In this document: positions 2,430 through 40,965 of the stretch, piece by piece
Layout of the letters: each line of letters starts with the position of its first letter
How positions within the stretch are numbered: position 1 is the first letter of the stretch
From: an uncultured Syntrophobacterales bacterium
GTDB lineage: Bacteria > Desulfobacterota > Binatia > UBA9968 > JAJDTQ01
Assembly (NCBI GenBank): GCA_964519455.1
Contig: CAZFIU010000003.1
Coordinates: 18,943-82,942 of the forward strand
Direction: 5' to 3'
DNA length: 64,000 bases
Made by a program: the position numbers and the translations under genes
The notes under the pieces: generated by a model
What the model saw: the letters and a program-made list of their open reading frames with translations, nothing else
Databases searched by the model: none
What the model was told of the DNA's origin: nothing

Positions 2430-3122
2430 TCAGAACTTCTCCACCCAGGGCCGCAGCTCGATGTGCGACGCCCAGGCGCTGCGGTGCTGGCGGTGGAGCT
2501 GGAGATAGGTCTCGGCGATGCTGTCGGGGCTGAGCCATGTGTCCGGGCCGCGCGCGGCATCGCGCCGAGGCGAATCGATGCCGCCGTCGATGACGATCTG
2601 GGCCACGTGGATGTTCCGCGGCTGAAGCTCCCGCGCCATGCTCTGGGCCAGGCCCGTGAGGCCGAACTTGCCCATGGCGAAGGAGGCGGAGTTGGCGTAG
2701 CCCTTGACGCTGGCCGAGGCGCCGGTGAACAGGATGGTGCCGCCGCCGGTGCCGAGCATGCTGGCGGCCGCGGCCTGCCCCACCAGGAAACCGCCGTAGC
2801 AGGTCACCATGATGGCGTCCCGGACCGCGGGCGGATCCAGCTCGGCCAGGGGTCCGCGCACGCGCGCGCTGGCGTTGTAGACCACCACGTTGGGCTCGCC
2901 CAGGTCCCGCGCCACTTGCGCGAAGAGATCGCTCACGTCCTCGGGCACCACGGCGTCGCACCGGTAGGCGCGGCAGCCGGTGCTGTCCGCGAGGCCCTGG
3001 AGCTTGTCCGGGTTGCGCGCGGCGATGGCCGCCTTCATGCCTTCCCGCGTGAACAGCCGCACGAGCGAGGAACTCAGTCCCGGCCCGCCTCCCACCACCA
3101 CTGCGACTTCCTGATCCGCCAT
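2430..3122 (-). CDS. SDR family NAD(P)-dependent oxidoreductase
   Basis: Gly-rich cofactor motif VVVGGGPGLSSSL, catalytic Y-x3-K region (YANSASFAMGK) and classical SDR length. Confidence 0.85.
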   Translation of the reverse strand: MADQEVAVVVGGGPGLSSSLVRLFTREGMKAAIAARNPDKLQGLADSTGCRAYRCDAVVPEDVSDLFAQVARDLGEPNVVVYNASARVRGPLAELDPPAVRDAIMVTCYGGFLVGQAAAASMLGTGGGTILFTGASASVKGYANSASFAMGKFGLTGLAQSMARELQPRNIHVAQIVIDGGIDSPRRDAARGPDTWLSPDSIAETYLQLHRQHRSAWASHIELRPWVEKF

Positions 3123-3143
3123 GTTTCTTCCTCCTTGATGGCC

Positions 3144-4316
3144 TCATTCGTAAAGCAACGCCCGATCGCGGCCGGCGTCGTAGACCTCCGTGCCGCCGCG
3201 GGCGATGCGCGCCACCTCGTCGAGCCCGGCGCCACCGTCAATGGCTTGCCTGACCGCGGGCCGTCCGGTCAAGAGGTCGATGGCCGGGACGTCGGCGCGG
3301 AACTCGTAGGGCTCCGTGCGCCAGGCGAACGACTCCGGCCAGAGCTTGCGCACCGCCATCAGCACGGCCAGGCCGGTCCGGTAGGGCAGGAAGGCGCGCC
3401 GGTCGGTGACGTGCAACTGCAGCGCGCCGCACCGTTCGCCCCGGAACTTGTGGAACGCCGGCTCGATGACGCAAGGGCGGAACCGCACCCCCGGCAGGTC
3501 CTGGCGCCGCAACTCGGCGGCCAGCGCCTCCGCCTCGATGAAGGGCGCGCCGAAGAGCTCGAAGGGACGCGTGGTGCCGCGGCCTTCGGACAGGTTGGTG
3601 CCCTCCAGCAGGCACATGCCCGGATAGACCAGCGCCGTGTCCGGGGTGGGCATGTTGGGCGACGGCATGACCCAGGGGAGGCCGCACTCGTCGTGGTACG
3701 CGCTCCGGCGCCAGCCCTCGCACGCCGCCACCTCCAGCTCGCAGCCGATGCCGAAGGCGTCGTTGTAGAGCCAAGCCAGCTCGCCCAGGGTCATGCCGTG
3801 GCGCTGGGGCACCGGGTAGAGGCCGCAGAAGTTCTCCAGCCCCGCGTCCAGGCCGCCGCCCTCCACCGCCACGCCGCCGATGGGGTTGGGACGGTCCAGC
3901 ACCACCACCTTGACCCCGGAGGCTCGCGCCGCGCGCATGCACAGGGCCATGGTGGCGGAATAGGTGTAGTAGCGCGCGCCCACGTCCTGGATGTCGAACA
4001 GGAGAACGTCGAGGTCCGCGAGGTGTTGCGGCGTGGGCGACAGCGACGCGAAGGTGTCGCCGTAGAGGCTTACCGCCGGCAGGCCCGTGGCCGGGTCCGC
4101 GTCGTGGGCCACCCCCACCATGTCCTGGGCGGAGCCGCGCAGCCCGTGCTCGGGACCGAACAGGCGGCGCAGGTCCACGTCCGGGTGACGGTACAACAGG
4201 TCGGCGGCGTGGGCCAGCCGGCGGTCCACCGTGGTGGGGTTGGCCACGAGCCCGACCCTGGCGGCGCCAAGCCAGCGGCGCGGATCGTCGAGCAGTCTTT
4301 CCAGTCCGGTGCGCAC
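3144..4316 (-). CDS. DUF1343 family protein (YzbB/NamZ-like exo-beta-N-acetylmuramidase family)
   Basis: The RVGLVANPTTVD...LFGPEHGLRG N-terminal signature and ~390 aa length match DUF1343. Confidence 0.7.
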   Translation of the reverse strand: MRTGLERLLDDPRRWLGAARVGLVANPTTVDRRLAHAADLLYRHPDVDLRRLFGPEHGLRGSAQDMVGVAHDADPATGLPAVSLYGDTFASLSPTPQHLADLDVLLFDIQDVGARYYTYSATMALCMRAARASGVKVVVLDRPNPIGGVAVEGGGLDAGLENFCGLYPVPQRHGMTLGELAWLYNDAFGIGCELEVAACEGWRRSAYHDECGLPWVMPSPNMPTPDTALVYPGMCLLEGTNLSEGRGTTRPFELFGAPFIEAEALAAELRRQDLPGVRFRPCVIEPAFHKFRGERCGALQLHVTDRRAFLPYRTGLAVLMAVRKLWPESFAWRTEPYEFRADVPAIDLLTGRPAVRQAIDGGAGLDEVARIARGGTEVYDAGRDRALLYE

Positions 4317-7441: not shown

Positions 7442-9343
7442 ATGAGCCACAACGACTACAAGGACGCTTACGCACGGGCGTTGAAGGACCCGGAAGGTTT
7501 CTGGGCCGAGGCCGCCGGCGACATCCACTGGGACCGGCGCTGGGACCGCGTGCTCGACGACTCCCGGCCGCCCTTCTACCGGTGGTTCACCGGCGGCGCC
7601 CTCAACACCTGCTACAACGCGCTGGACGTGCACGTGGAGCAGGGCAACGGCGCGCGCCCGGCGCTGATTTACGACAGCCCGGTGACGGACGGCGTCAAGA
7701 CCTTTACCTACGCAGAGCTGCGGGACGTGGTGGCGACCTTCGCCGGGGCGCTGCGCAACCACGGCGTGGGCGCCGGCGACCGGGTGATCATCTACATGCC
7801 CATGGTGCCCGAGGCGGTGGTGGCCATGCTGGCGTGCGCGCGCCTCGGCGCGGTGCACTCGGTGGTCTTCGGCGGCTTCGCCGCCAACGAGCTCGCCACC
7901 CGCATCGACGATGCCCGACCCAAGGTCATCGTGAGCGCGAGCTGCGGCATCGAGGTCAACCGCGTCGTCGAGTACAAGCCGCTGCTGGACGAGGCCATCC
8001 GCCTGGCGGGGCACAAGCCCGGCGCCTGCCTGGTGCTGCGGCGGCCCCAGGCCGAGGCCGCCATGACCGCCGACCGCGACGTGGACTGGAACGAGGCGGT
8101 GGCCGCCGCCGAACCGGCGCCATGCGTCTCCGTGGCCGCCACCGACCCCCTGTACATCCTCTACACCTCCGGCACCACCGGACAGCCCAAGGGCATCGTG
8201 CGCGACAACGGCGGCCACGCGGTGGCGCTCAAGTGGAGCATGAAGAACGTCTACGGCGTGGACGCCGGCGAGGTGTACTGGGCCGCTTCCGACGTGGGCT
8301 GGGTGGTGGGCCATTCCTACATCGTCTACGCACCGTTGCTGAAGGGCTGCACCACCGTCCTCTACGAGGGCAAGCCCGTGGGCACGCCCGATCCCGGCGC
8401 TTTCTGGCGGGTCATCAGCCAGCACGACGTCCGTGTGTTGTTCACCGCGCCCACCGCCTTCCGCGCCATCAAGAAAGAGGATCCCGACGGCGTCCATGTC
8501 GGGAAACACGACCTCAGCCGTTTCCGGACCCTGTTCCTCGCCGGCGAGCGCTGCGACCCCGATACGCTGGTGTGGGCGCGGGAGATGCTGGACGTGCCGG
8601 TCATCGACCACTGGTGGCAGACCGAGACCGGCTGGCCCATCGCGGCCAACTGCATGGGCATCGAGCCGCTCCCGGTGAAGCCCGGCTCGCCCACCCGGGC
8701 CGTGCCGGGGTACGACGTCCGCGTCCTCGACGACGAGGGACGCGAACTGCCGGCCGGCGCGATGGGCAGCATCACGCTGAAGCTGCCGCTGCCTCCGGGA
8801 TGCCTGCCCACCCTGTGGAACAACGAGCAAGGTTACCGCAGTGCCTACCTCGAGCAGCATCCCGGTTACTACGTCACCTCGGACGGCGGTTACTGCGACG
8901 AGGACGGCTACCTGTGGATCATGGGGCGCATCGACGACGTCATCAACGTCGCCGGACACCGGCTTTCCACCGGCGCCATGGAAGAGGTGGTGGCCGCCCA
9001 CCCGGCGGTGGCCGAATGCGCCGTGCTGGGCGTGGCCGACGCGCTCAAGGGCCAACTGCCCCTGGGACTGATCGTGGTCAAGGCGGGGGTGGAGACCACG
9101 GAAGAAGCCCTGGTGCCCGAACTCGTGAGCCTCGTGCGCGAAAAGATCGGGCCGGTGGCCGACTTCAAGCAGGCGCTGATGGTGAAGCGCCTGCCCAAGA
9201 CGCGCTCCGGCAAGATCCTGCGCGGCACGGTGCGGAGCATGGCGGACGGCACCCCCTACAAGGCCCCCGCCACCATCGACGATCCGGCCATACTGGACGA
9301 AATCCGGGAGGACCTGGGCCGGCTGGGGTATCCGAAAGGATGA
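7442..9343 (+). CDS. prpE: propionate--CoA ligase / acetyl-CoA-synthetase-family AMP-forming acyl-CoA synthetase
   Basis: N-terminus MSHNDYKDAYARALKDPEGFWAEAA, AMP-binding motif YTSGTTGQPKG, and C-terminal SGKILR lysine motif. GGAGA Shine-Dalgarno 6 nt upstream. Confidence 0.8.
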   Translation: MSHNDYKDAYARALKDPEGFWAEAAGDIHWDRRWDRVLDDSRPPFYRWFTGGALNTCYNALDVHVEQGNGARPALIYDSPVTDGVKTFTYAELRDVVATFAGALRNHGVGAGDRVIIYMPMVPEAVVAMLACARLGAVHSVVFGGFAANELATRIDDARPKVIVSASCGIEVNRVVEYKPLLDEAIRLAGHKPGACLVLRRPQAEAAMTADRDVDWNEAVAAAEPAPCVSVAATDPLYILYTSGTTGQPKGIVRDNGGHAVALKWSMKNVYGVDAGEVYWAASDVGWVVGHSYIVYAPLLKGCTTVLYEGKPVGTPDPGAFWRVISQHDVRVLFTAPTAFRAIKKEDPDGVHVGKHDLSRFRTLFLAGERCDPDTLVWAREMLDVPVIDHWWQTETGWPIAANCMGIEPLPVKPGSPTRAVPGYDVRVLDDEGRELPAGAMGSITLKLPLPPGCLPTLWNNEQGYRSAYLEQHPGYYVTSDGGYCDEDGYLWIMGRIDDVINVAGHRLSTGAMEEVVAAHPAVAECAVLGVADALKGQLPLGLIVVKAGVETTEEALVPELVSLVREKIGPVADFKQALMVKRLPKTRSGKILRGTVRSMADGTPYKAPATIDDPAILDEIREDLGRLGYPKG

Positions 9344-9485
9344 GGACCCGAAAACCTCGCGTCAACGGAAGACGAGCTTCTTTCCTGTCGTGGAACACGG
9401 TTTCCGCCTCATCGAACCCGATCCCGTGCTTGCGCCTGTTGTCGGCATGCTTTCGTTCATCCCATTGGAAGTGGATTTCCGGCAC
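9344..9485 (-). pseudogene. BrnT-family (DUF497) toxin N-terminal remnant
   Basis: The first ~33 aa (MPEIHFQWDERKHADNRRKHGIGFDEAETVFHD) match the BrnT N-terminus. Beyond that the frame runs antisense into the prpE 3' end with Arg/Pro/Gly-rich composition and no BrnT similarity. GTG start at 9485. Confidence 0.45.
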
Positions 9486-9490
9486 ATTTA

Positions 9491-9506
9491 CATTGTACCT
9501 ACAATG
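9491..9506. promoter_or_regulatory. palindrome CATTGTA-CC-TACAATG immediately upstream of the BrnT remnant, a TA-type operator overlapping a TACAAT -10-like hexamer
   Basis: Perfect 7-bp arms read directly. Confidence 0.35.
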
Positions 9507-9607
9507 GCGGCAGGGCTCAATCCCTTGATCCGGCGGCGGGAGGTCAGGTAGGTTGACTTGAGCCCGCCCACCCGGGCCGGCCGGCCGAAAAGGAAGGAGA
9601 CAGGCAC

Positions 9608-10036
9608 ATGCTCAAGATCGAAGGTGTGACCCATTGGTCCATTCCCGTGAACGACCTGGGCGAGGCGGAGAAGTTCTACGGCGACCTGCTGGGACTCAAG
9701 TCCCTGGGGCGGCTCGCCAACGACGTCATGGCGTGCTTCAACGTCGGCGACCACAACATTTTGCTGTGCGAGCGCAGGGAGTTGCCGGACAAGCCGGAGG
9801 ACGACCGCGTGCATCACTCCTTCACGGTCAGCCCGGAGACCCTGAACGAGGCATGCAAGGTCTTCAAGGAAGAGAACGTGAACGTGGTGGAGCTCTACTA
9901 CCGCAAGGGCGGGTACTTCCCGGGCCGCGAGCTTTACTTCACGGACCCCAGCGGCAACCGGCTGGAGCTGCGCGATCCCACCTGGAAGGACGGCATGCCC
10001 CAGCCCACGTTCGAAGAGGTGGCCGCCGCGCAGTAG
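9608..10036 (+). CDS. VOC family protein (glyoxalase/bleomycin-resistance/dioxygenase fold)
   Basis: 142 aa with the VOC beta-alpha-beta-beta-beta pattern (THWSIPVNDLGEAEKFYGDLLGL...). Confidence 0.8.
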   Translation: MLKIEGVTHWSIPVNDLGEAEKFYGDLLGLKSLGRLANDVMACFNVGDHNILLCERRELPDKPEDDRVHHSFTVSPETLNEACKVFKEENVNVVELYYRKGGYFPGRELYFTDPSGNRLELRDPTWKDGMPQPTFEEVAAAQ

Positions 10037-10075: not shown

Positions 10076-11245
10076 ATGGCGCAGGTTGACACCGACACGA
10101 GTTCCGACGATTCCTTTCCTCCCGAACTGGAGGTCAAGGAATACACTTACGACGACTGGATGGCGTCCACGGGAGTGCCGATCCACCGGGGCTACTTCAT
10201 CGAGGACCTGCGCACGGTGGAGCTGGACTGGTGGGAGCAGCGCGGGTGCGAGAGCGCCTTCATCCAGCTCGTGGGACAGGAGGGGGTCACCTCCGCCATG
10301 GTGCAGGAGATCCCGCCCGGAGAGACGTTGCCGCCGCTCAAGTTCGGTCTTGACGAACTCGTCTACGTGCTCCAGGGCCACGGTGTCACCACGGTGTGGC
10401 TGGGCGACAACGGCCCCAGGAACAGCTTCGAATGGCAGCCCCGGAGCCTGTTCCAGATCCCGCACAACTACCACCACACCCTGAGCAACATGCGCGGCGA
10501 CCAGCCCGTGCGGCTGCTGCGCTACAGCTACCTGCCGCTGGCCCTGTCGCTCAACACCGATCCCGAGTTCTTCTTCGACAACCGCTACGACGGCCAGGAC
10601 CACCTGGCCAACGGGGGCCAGCTCTACTCCGAGGCCAAGCTGGTGCGCGACGGCGATCCCACGCGCACCTGGGGCGGGCGCAGCGGCATCTTCTGGTACG
10701 GCAACTTCTTCCCGGACATGGGCTCCTGGAACAAGCTCAACCGCAGCAGCCGCCGGGGCGCGGGCGGTCACAGCGTGCTCATGACCTTTCCCAACTCCGA
10801 GATGTCCTGCCACATGTCGGTGTTCCCTTCCCGCACCTACAAGAAGGCGCACCGCCACGGTCCGGGCCGGGTCATCGTCATCCCCGCAGGCGAGGGCTAC
10901 TCCATCCTCTGGGAGGAGGGCAAGCAGAAGGTGGTGGCGCCGTGGCACGAGGCGAGCATGTTCGTGCCGCCGGGCAAGTGGTTCCACCAGCACTTCAACG
11001 CCGGCGGCACGCCGGCGCGCTACCTGGCGCTGCACCCGCCGCGGCAGTTCCGCGGCCACGCCGAGAAGGTCGAGGACCGCGCCAGGGACCAGATCGAGTA
11101 CGCGGACGAGGACCCGCAGATCCGCGAGCGGTTCGAGGGCGAACTGGACAAGCGCGGGCTCACCAGCCTGATGCCCGACGAGGTCTACAGGGACCGCGAA
11201 TTCCAGTGGACCTACCGGGACGCCGAAGCGCAGGCGGCCCCGTAG
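10076..11245 (+). CDS. bicupin protein (gentisate-1,2-dioxygenase-like cupin family)
   Basis: Two cupin beta-barrel segments with His-rich motifs (HNYHHTL... and HRHGPG...HQHFN). AAGGAG Shine-Dalgarno upstream of ATG 10076. Confidence 0.65.
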   Translation: MAQVDTDTSSDDSFPPELEVKEYTYDDWMASTGVPIHRGYFIEDLRTVELDWWEQRGCESAFIQLVGQEGVTSAMVQEIPPGETLPPLKFGLDELVYVLQGHGVTTVWLGDNGPRNSFEWQPRSLFQIPHNYHHTLSNMRGDQPVRLLRYSYLPLALSLNTDPEFFFDNRYDGQDHLANGGQLYSEAKLVRDGDPTRTWGGRSGIFWYGNFFPDMGSWNKLNRSSRRGAGGHSVLMTFPNSEMSCHMSVFPSRTYKKAHRHGPGRVIVIPAGEGYSILWEEGKQKVVAPWHEASMFVPPGKWFHQHFNAGGTPARYLALHPPRQFRGHAEKVEDRARDQIEYADEDPQIRERFEGELDKRGLTSLMPDEVYRDREFQWTYRDAEAQAAP

Positions 11246-35161: not shown

Positions 35162-36247
35162 ATGACGCTGATCCTCACCAACGAGGAGATCGAGAGCTGC
35201 TTCACCCTGGAGGAATGCTTCAGGGTGATGGAGCCCGCGTTCATCGACCTGGGCAACGGCGCCGCCGCCAACCTGCCCCGCCAGGACCTGCTGGTGCCCG
35301 GTCCCCTGGAGGGCAGCTACCACGGCCTCAAGTCCGCCGGCGGCTCCATGCCGCGCTTCGGCGTGACCGCCGCCCGGCTGACCTCGGACATCGTCACCTG
35401 GCCTGAAGTGGACGGCGAGAGACGGCGTGTCAAGGTGCCGCTGGCCATGGGCAACAAGTACGTCGGCCTGGTGTTTCTCTTCAGCACCGCCACCGGCGAG
35501 TTGCTGGCCATCTTCCCCGACGGCCTGGTGCAGGCCATCCGCGTGGGCGTCACCAACGCCCTTTCCGCCAAGTACATGGCGCGACCGGAATCGTCGGTGC
35601 TGGGGCTCTACGGCTCCGGCTGGCAGGCACGCTCCGGCCTCCTGGCCATGTGCTCGGCCATGCCCATCCGGGAGGTTCAGGTGTACAGCCCGACCGAGGA
35701 GCACCGACGGGCCTTCGCCCGAGAAATGGATCGCCGGGTGGAGGCCGAGGTACGGGCGGTGGACGTTCCCGAGCACGCGGCCCGCGGCGCCGACATCGCG
35801 CTTCTGACCACCAACGCGCTGGTGCCCTTCTTTCCGGCCGACTGGATTCGCCAAGGCATGCACATCGCCACCGTCCGCTCCAGCGAGATGACCGTGGACG
35901 CGCTGCTGCGGTGCGACCGGCTGGTGGTGTCGAGCCGGGAAGCTGCCCGGCTGGTGACGCTGCCCGGCGAGGAGGAGCGAATCCCGGAGGCCGGCGAGGG
36001 CGACTACAGGCGAGAGGAACTGAGCGGCACCGAGGCCGACTGGAGCCGGAAGCCGGAGTTGGGAGAGGTCATGGCGGGAAGAGCCGCGGGCAGGGAAAGC
36101 GCGGCGGAGGCGACCTGCATGCTCAACTATGTCGGACTCGGGCTCCAGTTCGCCGCCGCTGGAGCCCGAATCTACGAGTTGGCCCGGGAACGCGGCCTCG
36201 GCAGGGAGCTTCCCACCGAATGGTTCTCGCAGGACGTTCACTCGTAG
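35162..36247 (+). CDS. ornithine cyclodeaminase/mu-crystallin family protein
   Basis: Rossmann motif GLYGSGWQA and OCD-family length and pattern. Confidence 0.8.
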   Translation: MTLILTNEEIESCFTLEECFRVMEPAFIDLGNGAAANLPRQDLLVPGPLEGSYHGLKSAGGSMPRFGVTAARLTSDIVTWPEVDGERRRVKVPLAMGNKYVGLVFLFSTATGELLAIFPDGLVQAIRVGVTNALSAKYMARPESSVLGLYGSGWQARSGLLAMCSAMPIREVQVYSPTEEHRRAFAREMDRRVEAEVRAVDVPEHAARGADIALLTTNALVPFFPADWIRQGMHIATVRSSEMTVDALLRCDRLVVSSREAARLVTLPGEEERIPEAGEGDYRREELSGTEADWSRKPELGEVMAGRAAGRESAAEATCMLNYVGLGLQFAAAGARIYELARERGLGRELPTEWFSQDVHS

Positions 36248-36323
36248 GTGGCGCCGTGGGAGGGTTCGCGTTGAGATTTTGGACTATGTGTCACCAAGCC
36301 GACACTTCATCCTCCTTTTCCTT

Positions 36324-37214
36324 GTGCTAAAGATCATTACATGTTACCCGTTCGCCTCAGTGATTGCCAACCCAGAATTCAAACGGCAACCAAAGTACTT
36401 TTCGGCTTACGTGCGAACGCTCAGTCAGTACCTCGGTTACACTGTTCGGAGCAAAGGGATCGTAAAAGTGCCGACGCTTTCCGAAATAGGGGCAGGACTC
36501 GGCAACTTGGGGCTCGATCCGGGAAGAATTGTGGACGCGTTTGGTAAACCAACCCAGCTTGGTGCAGACTTGAATAGGTACTTTGAATATCGCTCGAGCA
36601 TTCTCAACAATTCAGTACAACATCAATTGATGACAGTCGAAGAGGCACGGCACACCTTCGAGGAGTTGCGCGAGGCCATGGTCTACGGTTGCCCCCTTCC
36701 GCTAAACAAGCAAAAAGGTGACAAGGCAGGCCCAGCGTACTTTACGGGAATCATCAATATGCTGATCGCTAACGGCTTGAGGGGGACTCAGTGCGACTAT
36801 TCACCCATGAAACTCACAACAATCACGAGAAACGCTACAGTAATCCGAACACTATCTAGACGGGTCGATGGCGCTTTCCCTGCCGTCGTGAATCCGTTGG
36901 CGTTGTGGGAAATCAAAGAGTACTACTACACTACCACGTTCGGAAGCAGAATCGCCGACGGAGTATACGAAACCCTTTTGGATGGCATGGAACTGCAAGA
37001 ACTCCGGGAACATGAGAATATTGACGTCAAACATTATCTGATGGTCGATGCGTACAACACGTGGTGGGAAATGGGTAGACCGTACCTCTGCCGTATGGTG
37101 GACATGCTCCACATGGGCTATGTCGATGAAGTCCTCTTTGGCAGGGATGTGATTGAGCGAATTCCCGAACTTACCAAGGAATGGCTGTCTCTGCTGGAGA
37201 ACAAGCCAGTCTAA
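36324..37214 (+). CDS. putative type II restriction endonuclease, DpnII/MboI-like (start uncertain: GTG 36324, TTG 36279 or GTG 36288)
   Basis: Low-GC (~50%) gene convergent with and overlapping a Dam-family methyltransferase. The segment PLALWEIKEYYYTTTFGSRIADGVYETLL resembles the DpnII ExK...SGSK catalytic core. No ATG is present, so an alternative start codon is required. Confidence 0.45.
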   Translation: MLKIITCYPFASVIANPEFKRQPKYFSAYVRTLSQYLGYTVRSKGIVKVPTLSEIGAGLGNLGLDPGRIVDAFGKPTQLGADLNRYFEYRSSILNNSVQHQLMTVEEARHTFEELREAMVYGCPLPLNKQKGDKAGPAYFTGIINMLIANGLRGTQCDYSPMKLTTITRNATVIRTLSRRVDGAFPAVVNPLALWEIKEYYYTTTFGSRIADGVYETLLDGMELQELREHENIDVKHYLMVDAYNTWWEMGRPYLCRMVDMLHMGYVDEVLFGRDVIERIPELTKEWLSLLENKPV

Positions 37215-38101
37215 TCGGGGCTGTAAGTCAACAACAGACGGTCGGCTACCTTTTCTTCCTCCAACGTTTCACCGTTCATCTGAAAGCGCCGCAACATGGA
37301 ACGTCCGCAGTCAATAAAAACCTCTCGATCAAATAGGCCTTTCGGGATTGAAAGGTCCACTTTGTGCTTCCCGGACTTCTTTGTCCCATCAATGCTCAGG
37401 GCGACGTAAACACCCCTGTTTTTGCAGTCCTCAATAGCGTTAAAGAGATCGGGCAAGTGGAAGGACTGTGCCCCGTAGAGTATCGCTTGGGAGTTACTAT
37501 AGGGCGGATCGCAATAGATGAGATCGTTAGGCCTAGCTTGTGCCATGGCCTCTTGATAATCCATCAGCAAGAATTGCGTGCCCGATGTTCTTGAGACCCA
37601 CTCATCCACGCGCCTTGAGAAGCTACTCGGGTGAATTGGATCGTGGGCACCGCAGGGCGTGGACATATACCCGTCGCGTTGCCTGAAACGCACTACGCCG
37701 CCATAGCACGACCGGCAGAGAAACACGAGGTCTGCTCCATTCGGATTGACGTTATATGCTGCCTTGATCTTCTCATACTGCCGTATCTTGTCCCCGCCTT
37801 TCAAAAACAGCCATCTCTCGGCGTACCAGAGTTTTAGCAGCTCGGGGTCGTTTGAGAGTGTCTGCCAGATTTCAACGAGAGGTTTGAAGGAATCAGAAGC
37901 GACCCCGCAACTCGGTGCAAGCGTTGCGAGGACGGCTGCACTTCCTACAAACGGTTCCCGGTACGTGCCCATCTGGGAGGGAAAGAATGAGGCTATCTGA
38001 TGGGCGAATCGCTGCTTGTTGCCAACCCACTTGAGCAACCCTGCCCTGAAGGGGCGGACCATCGCAGTATCCGAAAAAGGAAACCGTTGTTGGTAAACCA
38101 T
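37211..38101 (-). CDS. Dam-family N6-adenine DNA methyltransferase (D12 class)
   Basis: Motif I-like KWVGNK, EPFVGSAAV, and catalytic IYCDPPY (DPPY). Alternative start at 38062. Confidence 0.8.
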   Translation of the reverse strand: MVYQQRFPFSDTAMVRPFRAGLLKWVGNKQRFAHQIASFFPSQMGTYREPFVGSAAVLATLAPSCGVASDSFKPLVEIWQTLSNDPELLKLWYAERWLFLKGGDKIRQYEKIKAAYNVNPNGADLVFLCRSCYGGVVRFRQRDGYMSTPCGAHDPIHPSSFSRRVDEWVSRTSGTQFLLMDYQEAMAQARPNDLIYCDPPYSNSQAILYGAQSFHLPDLFNAIEDCKNRGVYVALSIDGTKKSGKHKVDLSIPKGLFDREVFIDCGRSMLRRFQMNGETLEEEKVADRLLLTYSPD

Positions 38102-38452
38102 TCTTATCTCACTGACTTGCCGACCGTGCTCCGGCGGTCCTTCGCCTTACCGGACACAAGTTTCATCTACTTCAACCGCGATGTCGAAGGCAACCCCTTC
38201 CCGCGACCAGCGGTTTTCTGCCTGAGCCACCGGTTGCCCCGAAGTTGAGGCATGACACGCTCTTCAGGTTGGCCACGAGTAATCGATGCCTATGGGCTCC
38301 CCGTAGAATTCATTACAGCCCGAACGTTCCAACAAGTCAACAACCGACACATACACGCCCTGGCCCTCAACCATGGTATCGGTCTTTCCTGCCGATTCTT
38401 TAACATCGGGGCAGCGTTTTCGGCCGACAACAGATGGGTCAAGTCCCAGCGG

Positions 38453-39442
38453 TTACGGGATCAGCAGGATCTTACCGGTGGTCTTACGGGACTCAAGCAG
38501 GCGATGCGCTTCTCCCGCCCGAGACAGTGGAACCGCCGCGCCGGTGAGCGCCGTGAGCGGTCCCGCCTCGAGCCAACGCAGCACGTCTCCGGCCCGCGAA
38601 AGGATCTCGGCGCGGTCGGCGGTATGGTGGGTGAGGCTGGGACGGCTCAGGGTAAGCGATCCCTTTGCGTTGAGGATGGCGGTGTCGAACGGCGGCACGG
38701 CGCCGCTGGACTGGCCGTAGATCACCATGCAGCCGCGCGGCGCCAGGGCGTCCAGACTCTTCTCGAAGGTGCTCTTTCCCACCGAATCGTAGACGACGTT
38801 GACGCCGCGTCCATCGGTCAGGCGGCGTGCCTCGACCGCGAAGTCGACGGCGGTGTAGTCCATGACCGCGTCGGCGCCGGCTTCCTCGGCGATGCGCGCC
38901 TTCTCGGGGGTCGATGCCGTGCCGAATACCCGCGCGCCGCGCATCTTGGCCATCTGTACCACCAGCAGTCCGGTGCCGCCGGCGGCGGCGTGGACGAGCA
39001 CCGTGTCTCCGGGGCCCACCGCATAGGTATCGCGGGTGAGGTAGTGGGCGGTCATGCCCTGGAGCATGGCCGCGGCCGCCGAACGCAGGTCCACGGACTC
39101 GGGGACGCGCACCAAGTGGCGTTCCGGCACCGCGGCGAGGTCGGCATAGGAACCGTAGCCGTTGGAGATGCCGTAGGCGACCCTGTCGCCGACGCTGACC
39201 TCGGAGACGTCCGCTCCGACGGCGAGCACGATGCCGGCCCCCTCGGCGCCGGGGACGTACGGGAGCGGACGTTGGTGATGGCCGCCCCAGTGGAAACCCG
39301 AGCGGTAGTAGATGTCCAGGTAGTTGACCCCCGCGGCGGCCACCTCCACCAACGCCTCGTCCGCCCGCGGCTCGGGCGCCTCCACCTCTTCGTAGCGGAG
39401 CACCTCCGGACCGCCCAGCTCGTGAACGCGGACGGCCTTCAT
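38453..39442 (-). CDS. NADPH:quinone oxidoreductase (zinc-binding dehydrogenase family, Qor-like)
   Basis: MDR/Qor pattern, GxGxxG as AAAGGTGLL. Confidence 0.85.
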   Translation of the reverse strand: MKAVRVHELGGPEVLRYEEVEAPEPRADEALVEVAAAGVNYLDIYYRSGFHWGGHHQRPLPYVPGAEGAGIVLAVGADVSEVSVGDRVAYGISNGYGSYADLAAVPERHLVRVPESVDLRSAAAAMLQGMTAHYLTRDTYAVGPGDTVLVHAAAGGTGLLVVQMAKMRGARVFGTASTPEKARIAEEAGADAVMDYTAVDFAVEARRLTDGRGVNVVYDSVGKSTFEKSLDALAPRGCMVIYGQSSGAVPPFDTAILNAKGSLTLSRPSLTHHTADRAEILSRAGDVLRWLEAGPLTALTGAAVPLSRAGEAHRLLESRKTTGKILLIP

Positions 39443-39551
39443 CGCGGACAGGGAAACCTTGATGGACCGCGGGACAGAGTGTAGGCCCGGTCGCTGCATT
39501 TCGTTGCCGCGGGCGGCCTTGGCGGCCCCGTGCGGCGGGACGTCGCCGCCA

Positions 39552-40673: not shown

Positions 40674-40690
40674 CTGCTCCCGGCCCCTCA

Positions 40691-40750
40691 TCGTCATTCC
40701 CTGCCTCTCTCCGTCATTCCTACCCCTCTCCGTCATTCCCGCGAAAGCGG
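40691..40750. repeat. three tandem ~20-bp copies of the half-unit (t/c)CGTCATTCC leading into a full palindromic element
   Basis: tcgtcattccctgcctctct / ccgtcattcctacccctctc / cgtcattcccgcgaaagcgg. Confidence 0.5.
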
Positions 40751-40830
40751 GAATCCAGGCGGGGTGGGGTCGGGGAGTCTCTGCCGTTTCCCCTCCACCA
40801 CTCCTGGATTCCCGCTTTCGCGGGAATGAC
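40732..40830. repeat. ~100-bp bipartite palindromic element (GTCATTCCCGCGAAAGCGGGAATCCAGG...CCTGGATTCCCGCTTTCGCGGGAATGAC)
   Basis: Near-identical to the elements at 13536-13634 and 53024-53123. Confidence 0.75.
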
Positions 40831-40871
40831 TCTTCCGGGGGTTGTTGCCTCTCCAAGATGGTGTTCTGACA

Positions 40872-40965
40872 CAGCCTGTTTCGCGGGAATGACGATTCGG
40901 GGCGACCACGTCATTCCCCATTCGTGAGGAGCTTGACAGCCCGGGAAGCGGGAATGACGCATTCG
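40872..40965. repeat. further copies: a right-arm half unit (TTTCGCGGGAATGACGATTCGGGG) and a variant element (GTCATTCCC-cattcgtgaggagcttgacagcccgggaagc-GGGAATGAC)
   Basis: Read directly. The variant resembles 29062-29100. Confidence 0.55.

Follow-up and report, generated by a model that had tools for sequence, protein, structure and literature searches.

The DNA analysed here is a stretch of 64,000 nucleotides (hereafter the window) from contig CAZFIU010000003.1 of an uncultured Syntrophobacterales bacterium, and it carries at 36249-38452 an islet that is very probably an intact, horizontally acquired type IIP restriction-modification (R-M) cassette of the BclI family. The GC content of the islet is 0.524, compared with 0.662 in the remaining 61.8 kb of the window, and in segments of 300 nt it stays at 0.48-0.57 from ~36250 to ~38450 and at 0.65-0.72 on either side. 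In the list of open reading frames (ORFs), the gene order is an ornithine cyclodeaminase gene on the plus strand, a plus-strand frame ending at 37214, a minus-strand ORF of 296 aa, and an alcohol dehydrogenase gene on the minus strand. The left host flank encodes a protein of the ornithine cyclodeaminase/mu-crystallin family (OCD; 35162-36247, plus strand; Pfam PF02423, 2.4e-34). The right host flank encodes a zinc-type alcohol dehydrogenase/quinone oxidoreductase (ADH; 38453-39499, minus strand; Pfam PF00107, PF08240, and PF13602), in the same orientation as the methyltransferase gene of the islet. The two genes of the islet lie tail to tail and their stop codons overlap in CTAA at 37211-37214, which is read as TAA on the plus strand and as TAG on the minus strand. 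A preliminary description made from the sequence had reported a low-GC islet of ~2.2 kb in high-GC DNA, convergent ORFs with a 4-bp stop overlap, and a type II R-M system, and in all three points it was right.

The plus-strand gene (R) occupies 36360-37214, starts with GTG, and encodes a putative restriction endonuclease of 284 aa. In Pfam, its N-terminal helical domain is DUF7690 (1.2e-19) and its C-terminal PD-(D/E)xK domain is DUF7687 (2.6e-81), and the two domains account for the whole protein. The PADLOC profile REase_II PDLC03423 also matches it end to end (1.2e-68, 230 bits). No NCBIfam family matches the endonuclease, a PDB sequence search with it returned nothing at E ≤ 10, and a search of the literature on DUF7687 and DUF7690 found no papers. 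About 7,000 proteins belong to the family, and nearly all have 280-290 aa. In an alignment of 52 sequences, with a mean column identity of 53%, D170 (36867-36869), E184 (36909-36911), and K186 (36915-36917, all on the plus strand) are invariant, and they are the candidate catalytic residues. The preliminary description had seen a PD-(D/E)xK-like core in LALWEIKEYYYTTTFGSRI; this motif is present in the frame ending at 37214 and holds the invariant E184-x-K186, so that this part of the description stands. An AlphaFold2 model built from the 52-sequence alignment (pLDDT 94.5, pTM 0.91) places D170 just past strand 160-168 and E184-I-K186 on strand 181-187, and the arrangement in the model is canonical for the PD-(D/E)xK motif. 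A Foldseek search of the model against the PDB gave nothing significant. The enzymes matched to the endonuclease, with their listed values, were BstEII (13.2), NgoMIV (9.8), BsoBI (9.8), PspGI (9.4), SgrAI (9.0), NucC (8.2), and Cfr10I (7.9). Most of them leave 5′ overhangs of 4 or 5 nt, like BclI. The PD-(D/E)xK type IIP enzymes in this set (BstEII, NgoMIV, BsoBI, PspGI, SgrAI, and Cfr10I) differ from the window endonuclease in that their sequence identity to it is 10-12% and that no counterpart of the N-terminal DUF7690 is found among the matches. The preliminary description had allowed that the ORF might prove not to be a nuclease; what we found is nuclease-like.

The preliminary description had also remarked that the endonuclease has no ATG start. 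There is indeed no in-frame ATG from the OCD stop (36247) to Met91 of the endonuclease (36630), but a start exists. All 52 aligned sequences begin at the position of the GTG at 36360, with M-[IKQ]-A-N-P-x-F, and position 1 of the PDLC03423 profile aligns to the same codon. The GTG and the 55 nt before it are kept in the two closest cassettes from other genomes, L004 and L005. Since the codon and its upstream sequence are conserved and the family alignment starts there, the missing ATG is a conserved GTG start. The 55-bp leader (36305-36359, plus strand) contains a conserved CCTTGTGC.AAAGA block. With the start at 36360, the non-coding margin on the left is 112 bp and not ~0.35 kb as had been proposed. 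On the plus strand of the leader there is no consensus sigma-70 promoter, and the GTG start has no Shine-Dalgarno sequence. NCBI protein P0038 is 100% identical over 36630-37214, has only 194 aa, and begins at the internal Met91. It is a truncated call of the endonuclease, a C-terminal fragment: the gene really starts with GTG, and the annotation of the source genome cut it short for that reason. Annotation pipelines tend to truncate the GTG-started members of this family.

The minus-strand gene (M) at 37211-38101 encodes an M.BclI-like D12/alpha-class N6-adenine DNA methyltransferase of 296 aa (PF02086, 1.2e-21). Motif I, EPFVG, is at 37943-37957 and motif IV, DPPY, at 37499-37510 (both on the minus strand), and LLKWVGNK is also present. 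The D12 class and the motifs KWVGNK, EPFVG, and DPPY had been recognized in the preliminary description, and the profile match confirms them. The protein matches PADLOC MTase_II PDLC03290 over its full length (2.6e-66), and its best PDB sequence matches are DpnM (6e-13) and E. coli Dam (3e-9). Its assignment to the Dam family cannot be kept. It scores 108.5 against a cut-off of 114.85 for TIGR00571 and 52.4 against a cut-off of 441 for the Dam equivalog NF008152, and judged by these profiles it is D12-class but no Dam orthologue. With E. coli Dam it shares the fold, the motifs KW.G.K, F.G.G, and DPPY, and the GATC-contacting residues of the hairpin; it differs in lying below both cut-offs, in being paired with an endonuclease, in its foreign composition, and in its absence from relatives of the host. 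In an alignment, K24, Y133, V136, R138, and P149 are the equivalents of K9, Y119, L122, R124, and P134 of EcoDam, the residues that reportedly read GATC in the EcoDam-DNA structure of Horton and colleagues from 2006. Met14 (38062) was weighed as an alternative start, since the N-terminus of M.BclI is shorter, and was rejected; L004 and L005 both keep the ATG at 38101, as well as the GAGATAAGA block upstream of it. The dN/dS (nonsynonymous to synonymous rate) ratio of the endonuclease gene is 0.18 against L004 and 0.09 against L005, and that of the methyltransferase gene is 0.09 and 0.10, respectively. Both genes are full length, and ratios of 0.09-0.18 against cassettes of other hosts indicate that both are under purifying selection.

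The OCD protein retrieved 17 loci, at 88-97% identity, from metagenome-assembled genomes of Candidatus Binatia, some of which are labelled Thermodesulfobacteriota, Syntrophobacterales, or Deltaproteobacteria. The order dihydrodipicolinate synthase-OCD-ADH-cyclase is kept in all 17, the spacer between OCD and ADH is 70-780 bp long, and neither R nor M was found in this spacer in any of the 17 Binatia relatives. At the DNA level, the relatives match the window up to the OCD stop codon (36246-36263) and again from the ADH stop codon onwards (38449-38454 in most of them, 38415 in L019). Since all relatives keep the gene order and lack the cassette, the islet is an insertion and its methyltransferase is not an orphan Dam. 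The cassette went into the intergenic space that separates two convergent host genes. An orphan Dam-like regulatory methyltransferase of the lineage, standing beside an unrelated ORF, would have been a natural alternative; orphan D12 methyltransferases are common, and the PADLOC orphan-methyltransferase models match the protein weakly (1e-22). However, the preliminary description had named conservation of such an orphan at this locus as a finding that would refute an R-M system, and the gene is at the locus in 0/17 relatives. Its GC content is foreign, the ORF-methyltransferase pair is conserved at 70/70 informative loci of the family (see below), and the best PADLOC model is the type II methyltransferase one. 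With the empty locus in 17 relatives and the conserved R-M pairing we rejected the orphan explanation, which has next to no probability left.

The link to BclI came from a tblastn search of plasmids with the endonuclease, which matched pBcl1 of [Bacillus] caldolyticus NEB414. In the annotated layout, pBcl1 carries a DNA adenine methylase (minus strand), a helix-turn-helix (HTH) regulator (plus strand), and a 'hypothetical protein' (plus strand). The sequence of the HTH protein is that of C.BclI (PDB 2B5A; 100% identity). NEB414 is the original source of BclI, which cuts T^GATCA, and the only type II alpha methyltransferase motif in its methylome is N6-methyladenine in TGATCA (PMC5805893). Adenine methylation blocks BclI (PMC4471560). 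From its position directly 3′ of C.BclI in the BclI producer strain, we infer that the 'hypothetical protein' is R.BclI. This ORF matches 285/285 positions of PADLOC PDLC03423 with 681 bits, and the model is therefore in effect R.BclI. The window endonuclease is 44% identical to the pBcl1 ORF over residues 1-277 (2e-80), and the window methyltransferase is 46% identical to the pBcl1 methylase over its full length (3e-88). RefSeq and UniRef label the R.BclI gene of the producer strain (L001 4001-4858 on pBcl1, NZ_CP025075.1; protein P0121) 'hypothetical protein' or 'DUF7687 domain-containing protein', and about 7,000 R.BclI homologues carry the same label. Pfam DUF7690 and DUF7687 can now be read as the two domains of the BclI endonuclease family.

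Full-length homology of both R and M to the pBcl1 pair places the system in the BclI family and not in the DpnII/MboI family, to which the preliminary description had likened the endonuclease. The DpnII/MboI systems (PF04556; DpnM, PDB 2DPM) do share a D12/alpha methyltransferase with the window, DpnM, the DpnII methylase, being its best PDB match, and they probably share a GATC core, GATC being the core of TGATCA. They differ in that the window endonuclease is unrelated to theirs at the level of sequence families and that it probably recognizes six base pairs instead of four. The endonuclease has no match to PF04556 even at E ≤ 0.1, and full-length matches to DUF7690 plus DUF7687 and to the R.BclI model are found instead; the methyltransferase falls below the TIGR00571 cut-off and far below that of the Dam equivalog. 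Membership of the DpnII/MboI family was rejected because the R.BclI-type domains cover the protein and PF04556 does not match, and a GATC endonuclease of that family paired with a Dam methylase is very improbable.

The window cassette and the BclI system of pBcl1 (M.BclI, C.BclI, and R.BclI) have in common full-length homology of R and M, the PADLOC models PDLC03423 and PDLC03290, DUF7690 plus DUF7687, an alpha/D12 methyltransferase, and the invariant D...ExK. They are organized differently. In the BclI system, M is divergent from a C-R operon, whereas the window cassette has no C.BclI-like gene and its two genes are convergent with overlapping stops. In addition, the window endonuclease is GTG-started, and the cassette is chromosomal, in a high-GC member of the Binatia, and adjoins the relic of an IS1595 transposase. 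A survey covered 80 metagenomic loci with an endonuclease homologue at 54-81% identity. A D12 methyltransferase gene is adjacent in 70/80 of them, that is, in 70/70 informative loci; in the remaining 10 the contig extends less than 700 bp 5′ of R, where a divergent methyltransferase gene would lie, and could not have shown one there. An adjacent methyltransferase gene is also found at L001-L005 and L105-L109. At 61 loci M diverges from R, as in the BclI system, and 50 of the 61 have a C.BclI-like HTH gene immediately next to R. The convergent layout with no C gene was seen at nine loci. Eight of the nine are the methyltransferase-showing loci at ≥65% identity to the window, and the ninth, L090, is 58% identical. 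The window cassette belongs to a sub-clade that has changed the gene order and lost the controller (C) gene. No HTH ORF is found in the window cassette, and there is no room for a C gene, as no more than 112 bp separate the OCD stop from the start of R. A C gene and a divergent M are an architectural trait of most members of the BclI family; they are no criterion for membership of the protein family.

The ~0.35 kb beyond the methyltransferase start (38102-38452) had been described as gene-free. It contains, at 38117-38260 (minus strand), the decayed remains of an IS1595-family DDE transposase gene, which cover residues ~116-162 of 312 with an in-frame stop. This call was made with blastn and tblastn only. 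In blastn, 38137-38209 matches the inside of the transposase gene of L004 (81% over 78 nt, E = 2.8e-13), and in tblastn the relic is 40% identical over 48 aa, the stop included (E = 3e-4). The relic, of ~144 bp, sits where an intact transposase gene abuts the methyltransferase gene in the closest cassettes. A module of ~1.8 kb (36305-38113 in the window) recurs in unrelated contexts, with DNA identities of 86% in L004 (7946-9757 by blastn), 79% in L005, and 76% in L109. The methyltransferase gene is directly preceded, on its own strand, by an IS1595-family transposase gene in L004 (and in L105 and L106, which are variants of L004) and, independently, in L109; the two genes either overlap by 4 bp or are 2 bp apart. 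In Pfam, the transposase of L004 matches PF12762 (9.8e-32) and PF12760 (2e-6). In L004, a 63-aa ORF, R, M, and the transposase gene lie within imperfect 23-bp inverted repeats at 7733-7755 and 10746-10768 (GGAACTATATACGATAGTGCCAA and GGAATGATATACGAAAGTGCCAT), and the unit is flanked by a near-perfect direct duplication of 9-10 bp, CCTTT(G)CTAC (CCTTTCTAC / CCTTTGCTAC). Another inverted-repeat pair, 7893/10814, was dropped for 7733/10768, which has the flanking duplication. L004 7733-10768, ~3.0 kb, is a complete IS1595-family transposon with R-M cargo.

The IS1595 elements with passenger genes are represented in this comparison by L004, with its transposase, inverted repeats, duplication, and cargo of R, M, and the small ORF, and by the transposase-to-methyltransferase junction in L109. 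The window, in contrast, holds a relic of 48 codons with a stop, and has no inverted repeats and no duplication. With a relic for a transposase gene and neither transposon end, the window copy is no longer mobile by the IS1595 route; the small ORF is missing from it as well. L005 holds a similar relic, of the transposase C-terminus. The cassette probably came to the window as cargo of an IS1595-family transposon whose transposase gene has since decayed, and the locus offers a clean comparison of empty and occupied sites, with an R-M cassette between convergent genes and traces of its IS1595 vehicle. At the left edge, the DNA common to cassettes of other genomes starts at the leader (36305), and the junction spacer before it (36249-36304) matches neither the intergenic DNA of the relatives nor the related cassettes. 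At the right edge, a spacer of intermediate GC (~0.57; 38261-38414) lies between the relic and host DNA, and no repeats mark its boundary. No target-site duplication and no terminal inverted repeats were found at the islet edges; the sole inverted match, of 8 nt, is at chance level. The spacer of the closest empty site (L006) aligns to the islet margins only as 7-mers, and the exact insertion point can therefore not be placed within 36249-36304 and 38261-38414.

Divergent from R, L004 (7760-7951), L109 (4714-4911), and L025 (186-371) carry a small ORF of 63-65 aa, in each case on the minus strand. Cassettes in different surroundings share this ORF (52% identity, E = 7e-17); no Pfam or PADLOC family matches it, and it is not present in the window, L005, or L107. 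It may be a regulator of the clade that has no C gene.

Several features could delay or limit expression of the endonuclease in this clade. One candidate is the GTG start, which is conserved and has no recognizable Shine-Dalgarno sequence before it. Another is the packing of the two genes tail to tail; terminators have no space there, and transcription would be convergent and mutually antisense. In intact elements, the coupling of M to the transposase gene may be a third. Each gene of the cassette has the orientation of its host neighbour, R following OCD and M following ADH, so that read-through transcription from the host genes is possible. It is conceivable, and we put this forward tentatively, that the convergent C-less branch of the BclI family travels as IS1595 cargo, that translational coupling of the methyltransferase to the transposase has replaced the timing switch of the C protein, and that the window holds a stranded copy that needs host read-through. 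If this were true, the small ORF, R, the opposite-strand M, and the transposase gene would form one unit in which transposition and protective methylation are expressed together, and the window copy would have lost the transposase, the transposon ends, and the small ORF.

The cassette could also be a decaying remnant, with a functional but effectively solitary methyltransferase and an endonuclease expressed hardly or not at all, its gene having a GTG start, no Shine-Dalgarno sequence, and neither its regulator nor the transposon context any longer. The search for an ATG, a Shine-Dalgarno sequence, or a promoter of the endonuclease gene found none, and the NCBI annotation calls its 194-aa C-terminal fragment only (P0038). 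Moreover, the neighbouring transposase gene is decayed, the small upstream ORF is missing, and in one relative of the cassette, L033, the R gene is interrupted by an IS (insertion sequence) element. Nevertheless, the R ORF of the window is full length and keeps every invariant residue, its GTG start and 55-bp leader are conserved in intact cassettes elsewhere, and its dN/dS of 0.09-0.18 is low. We consider a remnant improbable. In L033 (1221-2976), homology to R ends at residue 261 and is followed by an IS1595-like transposase gene that is 37% identical to that of L004; R and M are 3.6 kb apart, and the endonuclease looks to have been inactivated by the IS element.

The recognition site of the window cassette is likely to be TGATCA. 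This prediction draws on the homology of R and M to the BclI pair, on the kept equivalents of the GATC-contacting residues, and on the conserved hairpin of the methyltransferase, CYGGVVRF...FSRRV, which is 68% identical to M.BclI compared with 46% for the protein overall. Another site with a GATC core is rather unlikely. In the form in which we considered it, the family and function would be the same, and the reading of the flanking bases would have diverged from that of BclI, giving plain GATC or another GATC-containing hexamer. Such a divergence would be compatible with an identity of only 44-46% to the BclI pair, with a clade that has changed gene order and lost the C gene, and with A152 and H153 of the methyltransferase, which differ from the equivalents R137 and Y138 of EcoDam; of these two residues, M.BclI has the H as well, with P in place of the A. 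On the other hand, R and M have co-diverged throughout the family, full-length conservation is strong, and the DNA-reading hairpin is the part of the methyltransferase that is best conserved relative to M.BclI. We know of no member of the BclI family with another site. A different site in this form has a low probability, higher than that of a decaying remnant.

Several points weigh against a working BclI-family cassette with the site TGATCA. The specificity is extrapolated from homologues with which the window proteins share 44-46% identity. TGATCA occurs 14 times in the host part of the window, compared with 13.7 expected, and is not avoided. GATC, with 281 occurrences there against 313 expected (observed/expected 0.90), is not avoided either. 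A scan of 36000-38700 gave promoter and terminator scores at or below shuffled expectation, with no recognizable promoter, terminator, or Shine-Dalgarno sequence for the GTG start. Finally, the cassette has neither the C gene of BclI nor the small divergent ORF of some of its closest relatives, which leaves the avoidance of lethal endonuclease expression without explanation. Counts of TGATCA and GATC are also neutral in 212 kb of the Binatia relatives, and the composition thus does not reveal the specificity. The absence of avoidance fits a recent arrival and gives no positive support for the specificity.

If the BclI-family cassette works as its homology suggests, the methyltransferase would be an S-adenosylmethionine-dependent alpha-class enzyme, most likely methylating N6 of adenine in TGATCA on both strands. 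The endonuclease would be a Mg2+-dependent PD-(D/E)xK enzyme with the candidate active site D170/E184/K186, most likely a homodimer that cuts unmethylated T^GATCA and leaves 5′-GATC ends. Host DNA would be protected, and incoming unmethylated DNA would be cut. The preliminary description expected methylation of GATC sites, of which the window has 291; the target is more likely TGATCA, with 14 sites in the window. The predicted methylation target thereby becomes (probably) one site per ~4.4 kb instead of every GATC, and this bears on the interpretation of methylomes, on binning by methylation, and on attempts at transformation. The known workings of R-M systems are unchanged by these findings. 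The cassette is an ordinary, recently acquired defence or selfish module of a known family, with known kinds of variation in architecture and mobility.

A second kind of mobile context was observed in L107, another relative (77% identity). Two IS3-family elements (HTH_Tnp_1 plus rve) in the same orientation, at 2839-3983 and 8706-9835, bracket the R-M pair together with a HEPN_Toprim_N gene, and L108 has a similar organization. The bracketed unit adjoins an McrBC system. Such a layout is reminiscent of a composite transposon within a defence island.

Other features of the window lie outside the cassette. Across the 64 kb, no tRNA gene and no Rfam family at the gathering threshold was found. 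The PvuII site CAGCTG is almost absent, with 0 occurrences compared with 15.5 expected in the 61.8 kb outside the islet (z = -3.9), and in the 212 kb of Binatia relatives (L006-L022) it occurs 5 times compared with 67 expected. GGGCCC is depleted both in the window outside the islet (6 compared with 21 expected) and in the relatives (40 compared with 76), and so is CTAG (observed/expected 0.26 in the window outside the islet; 52 compared with 243 in the relatives). The counts of CAGCTG suggest that the lineage has long been exposed to a CAGCTG-specific restriction system, or is under some other constraint. A cluster of palindromic units that resemble repetitive extragenic palindromes (REP), GTCATTCCCGCGAAAGCGGGAATCC, is found in an intergenic region at 40680-40960, and the 36-nt arms of one pair show 94% complementarity. 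These REP-like units give rise to 'IPAFAGMT/PRKRES', peptides of the ORF list that are spurious.

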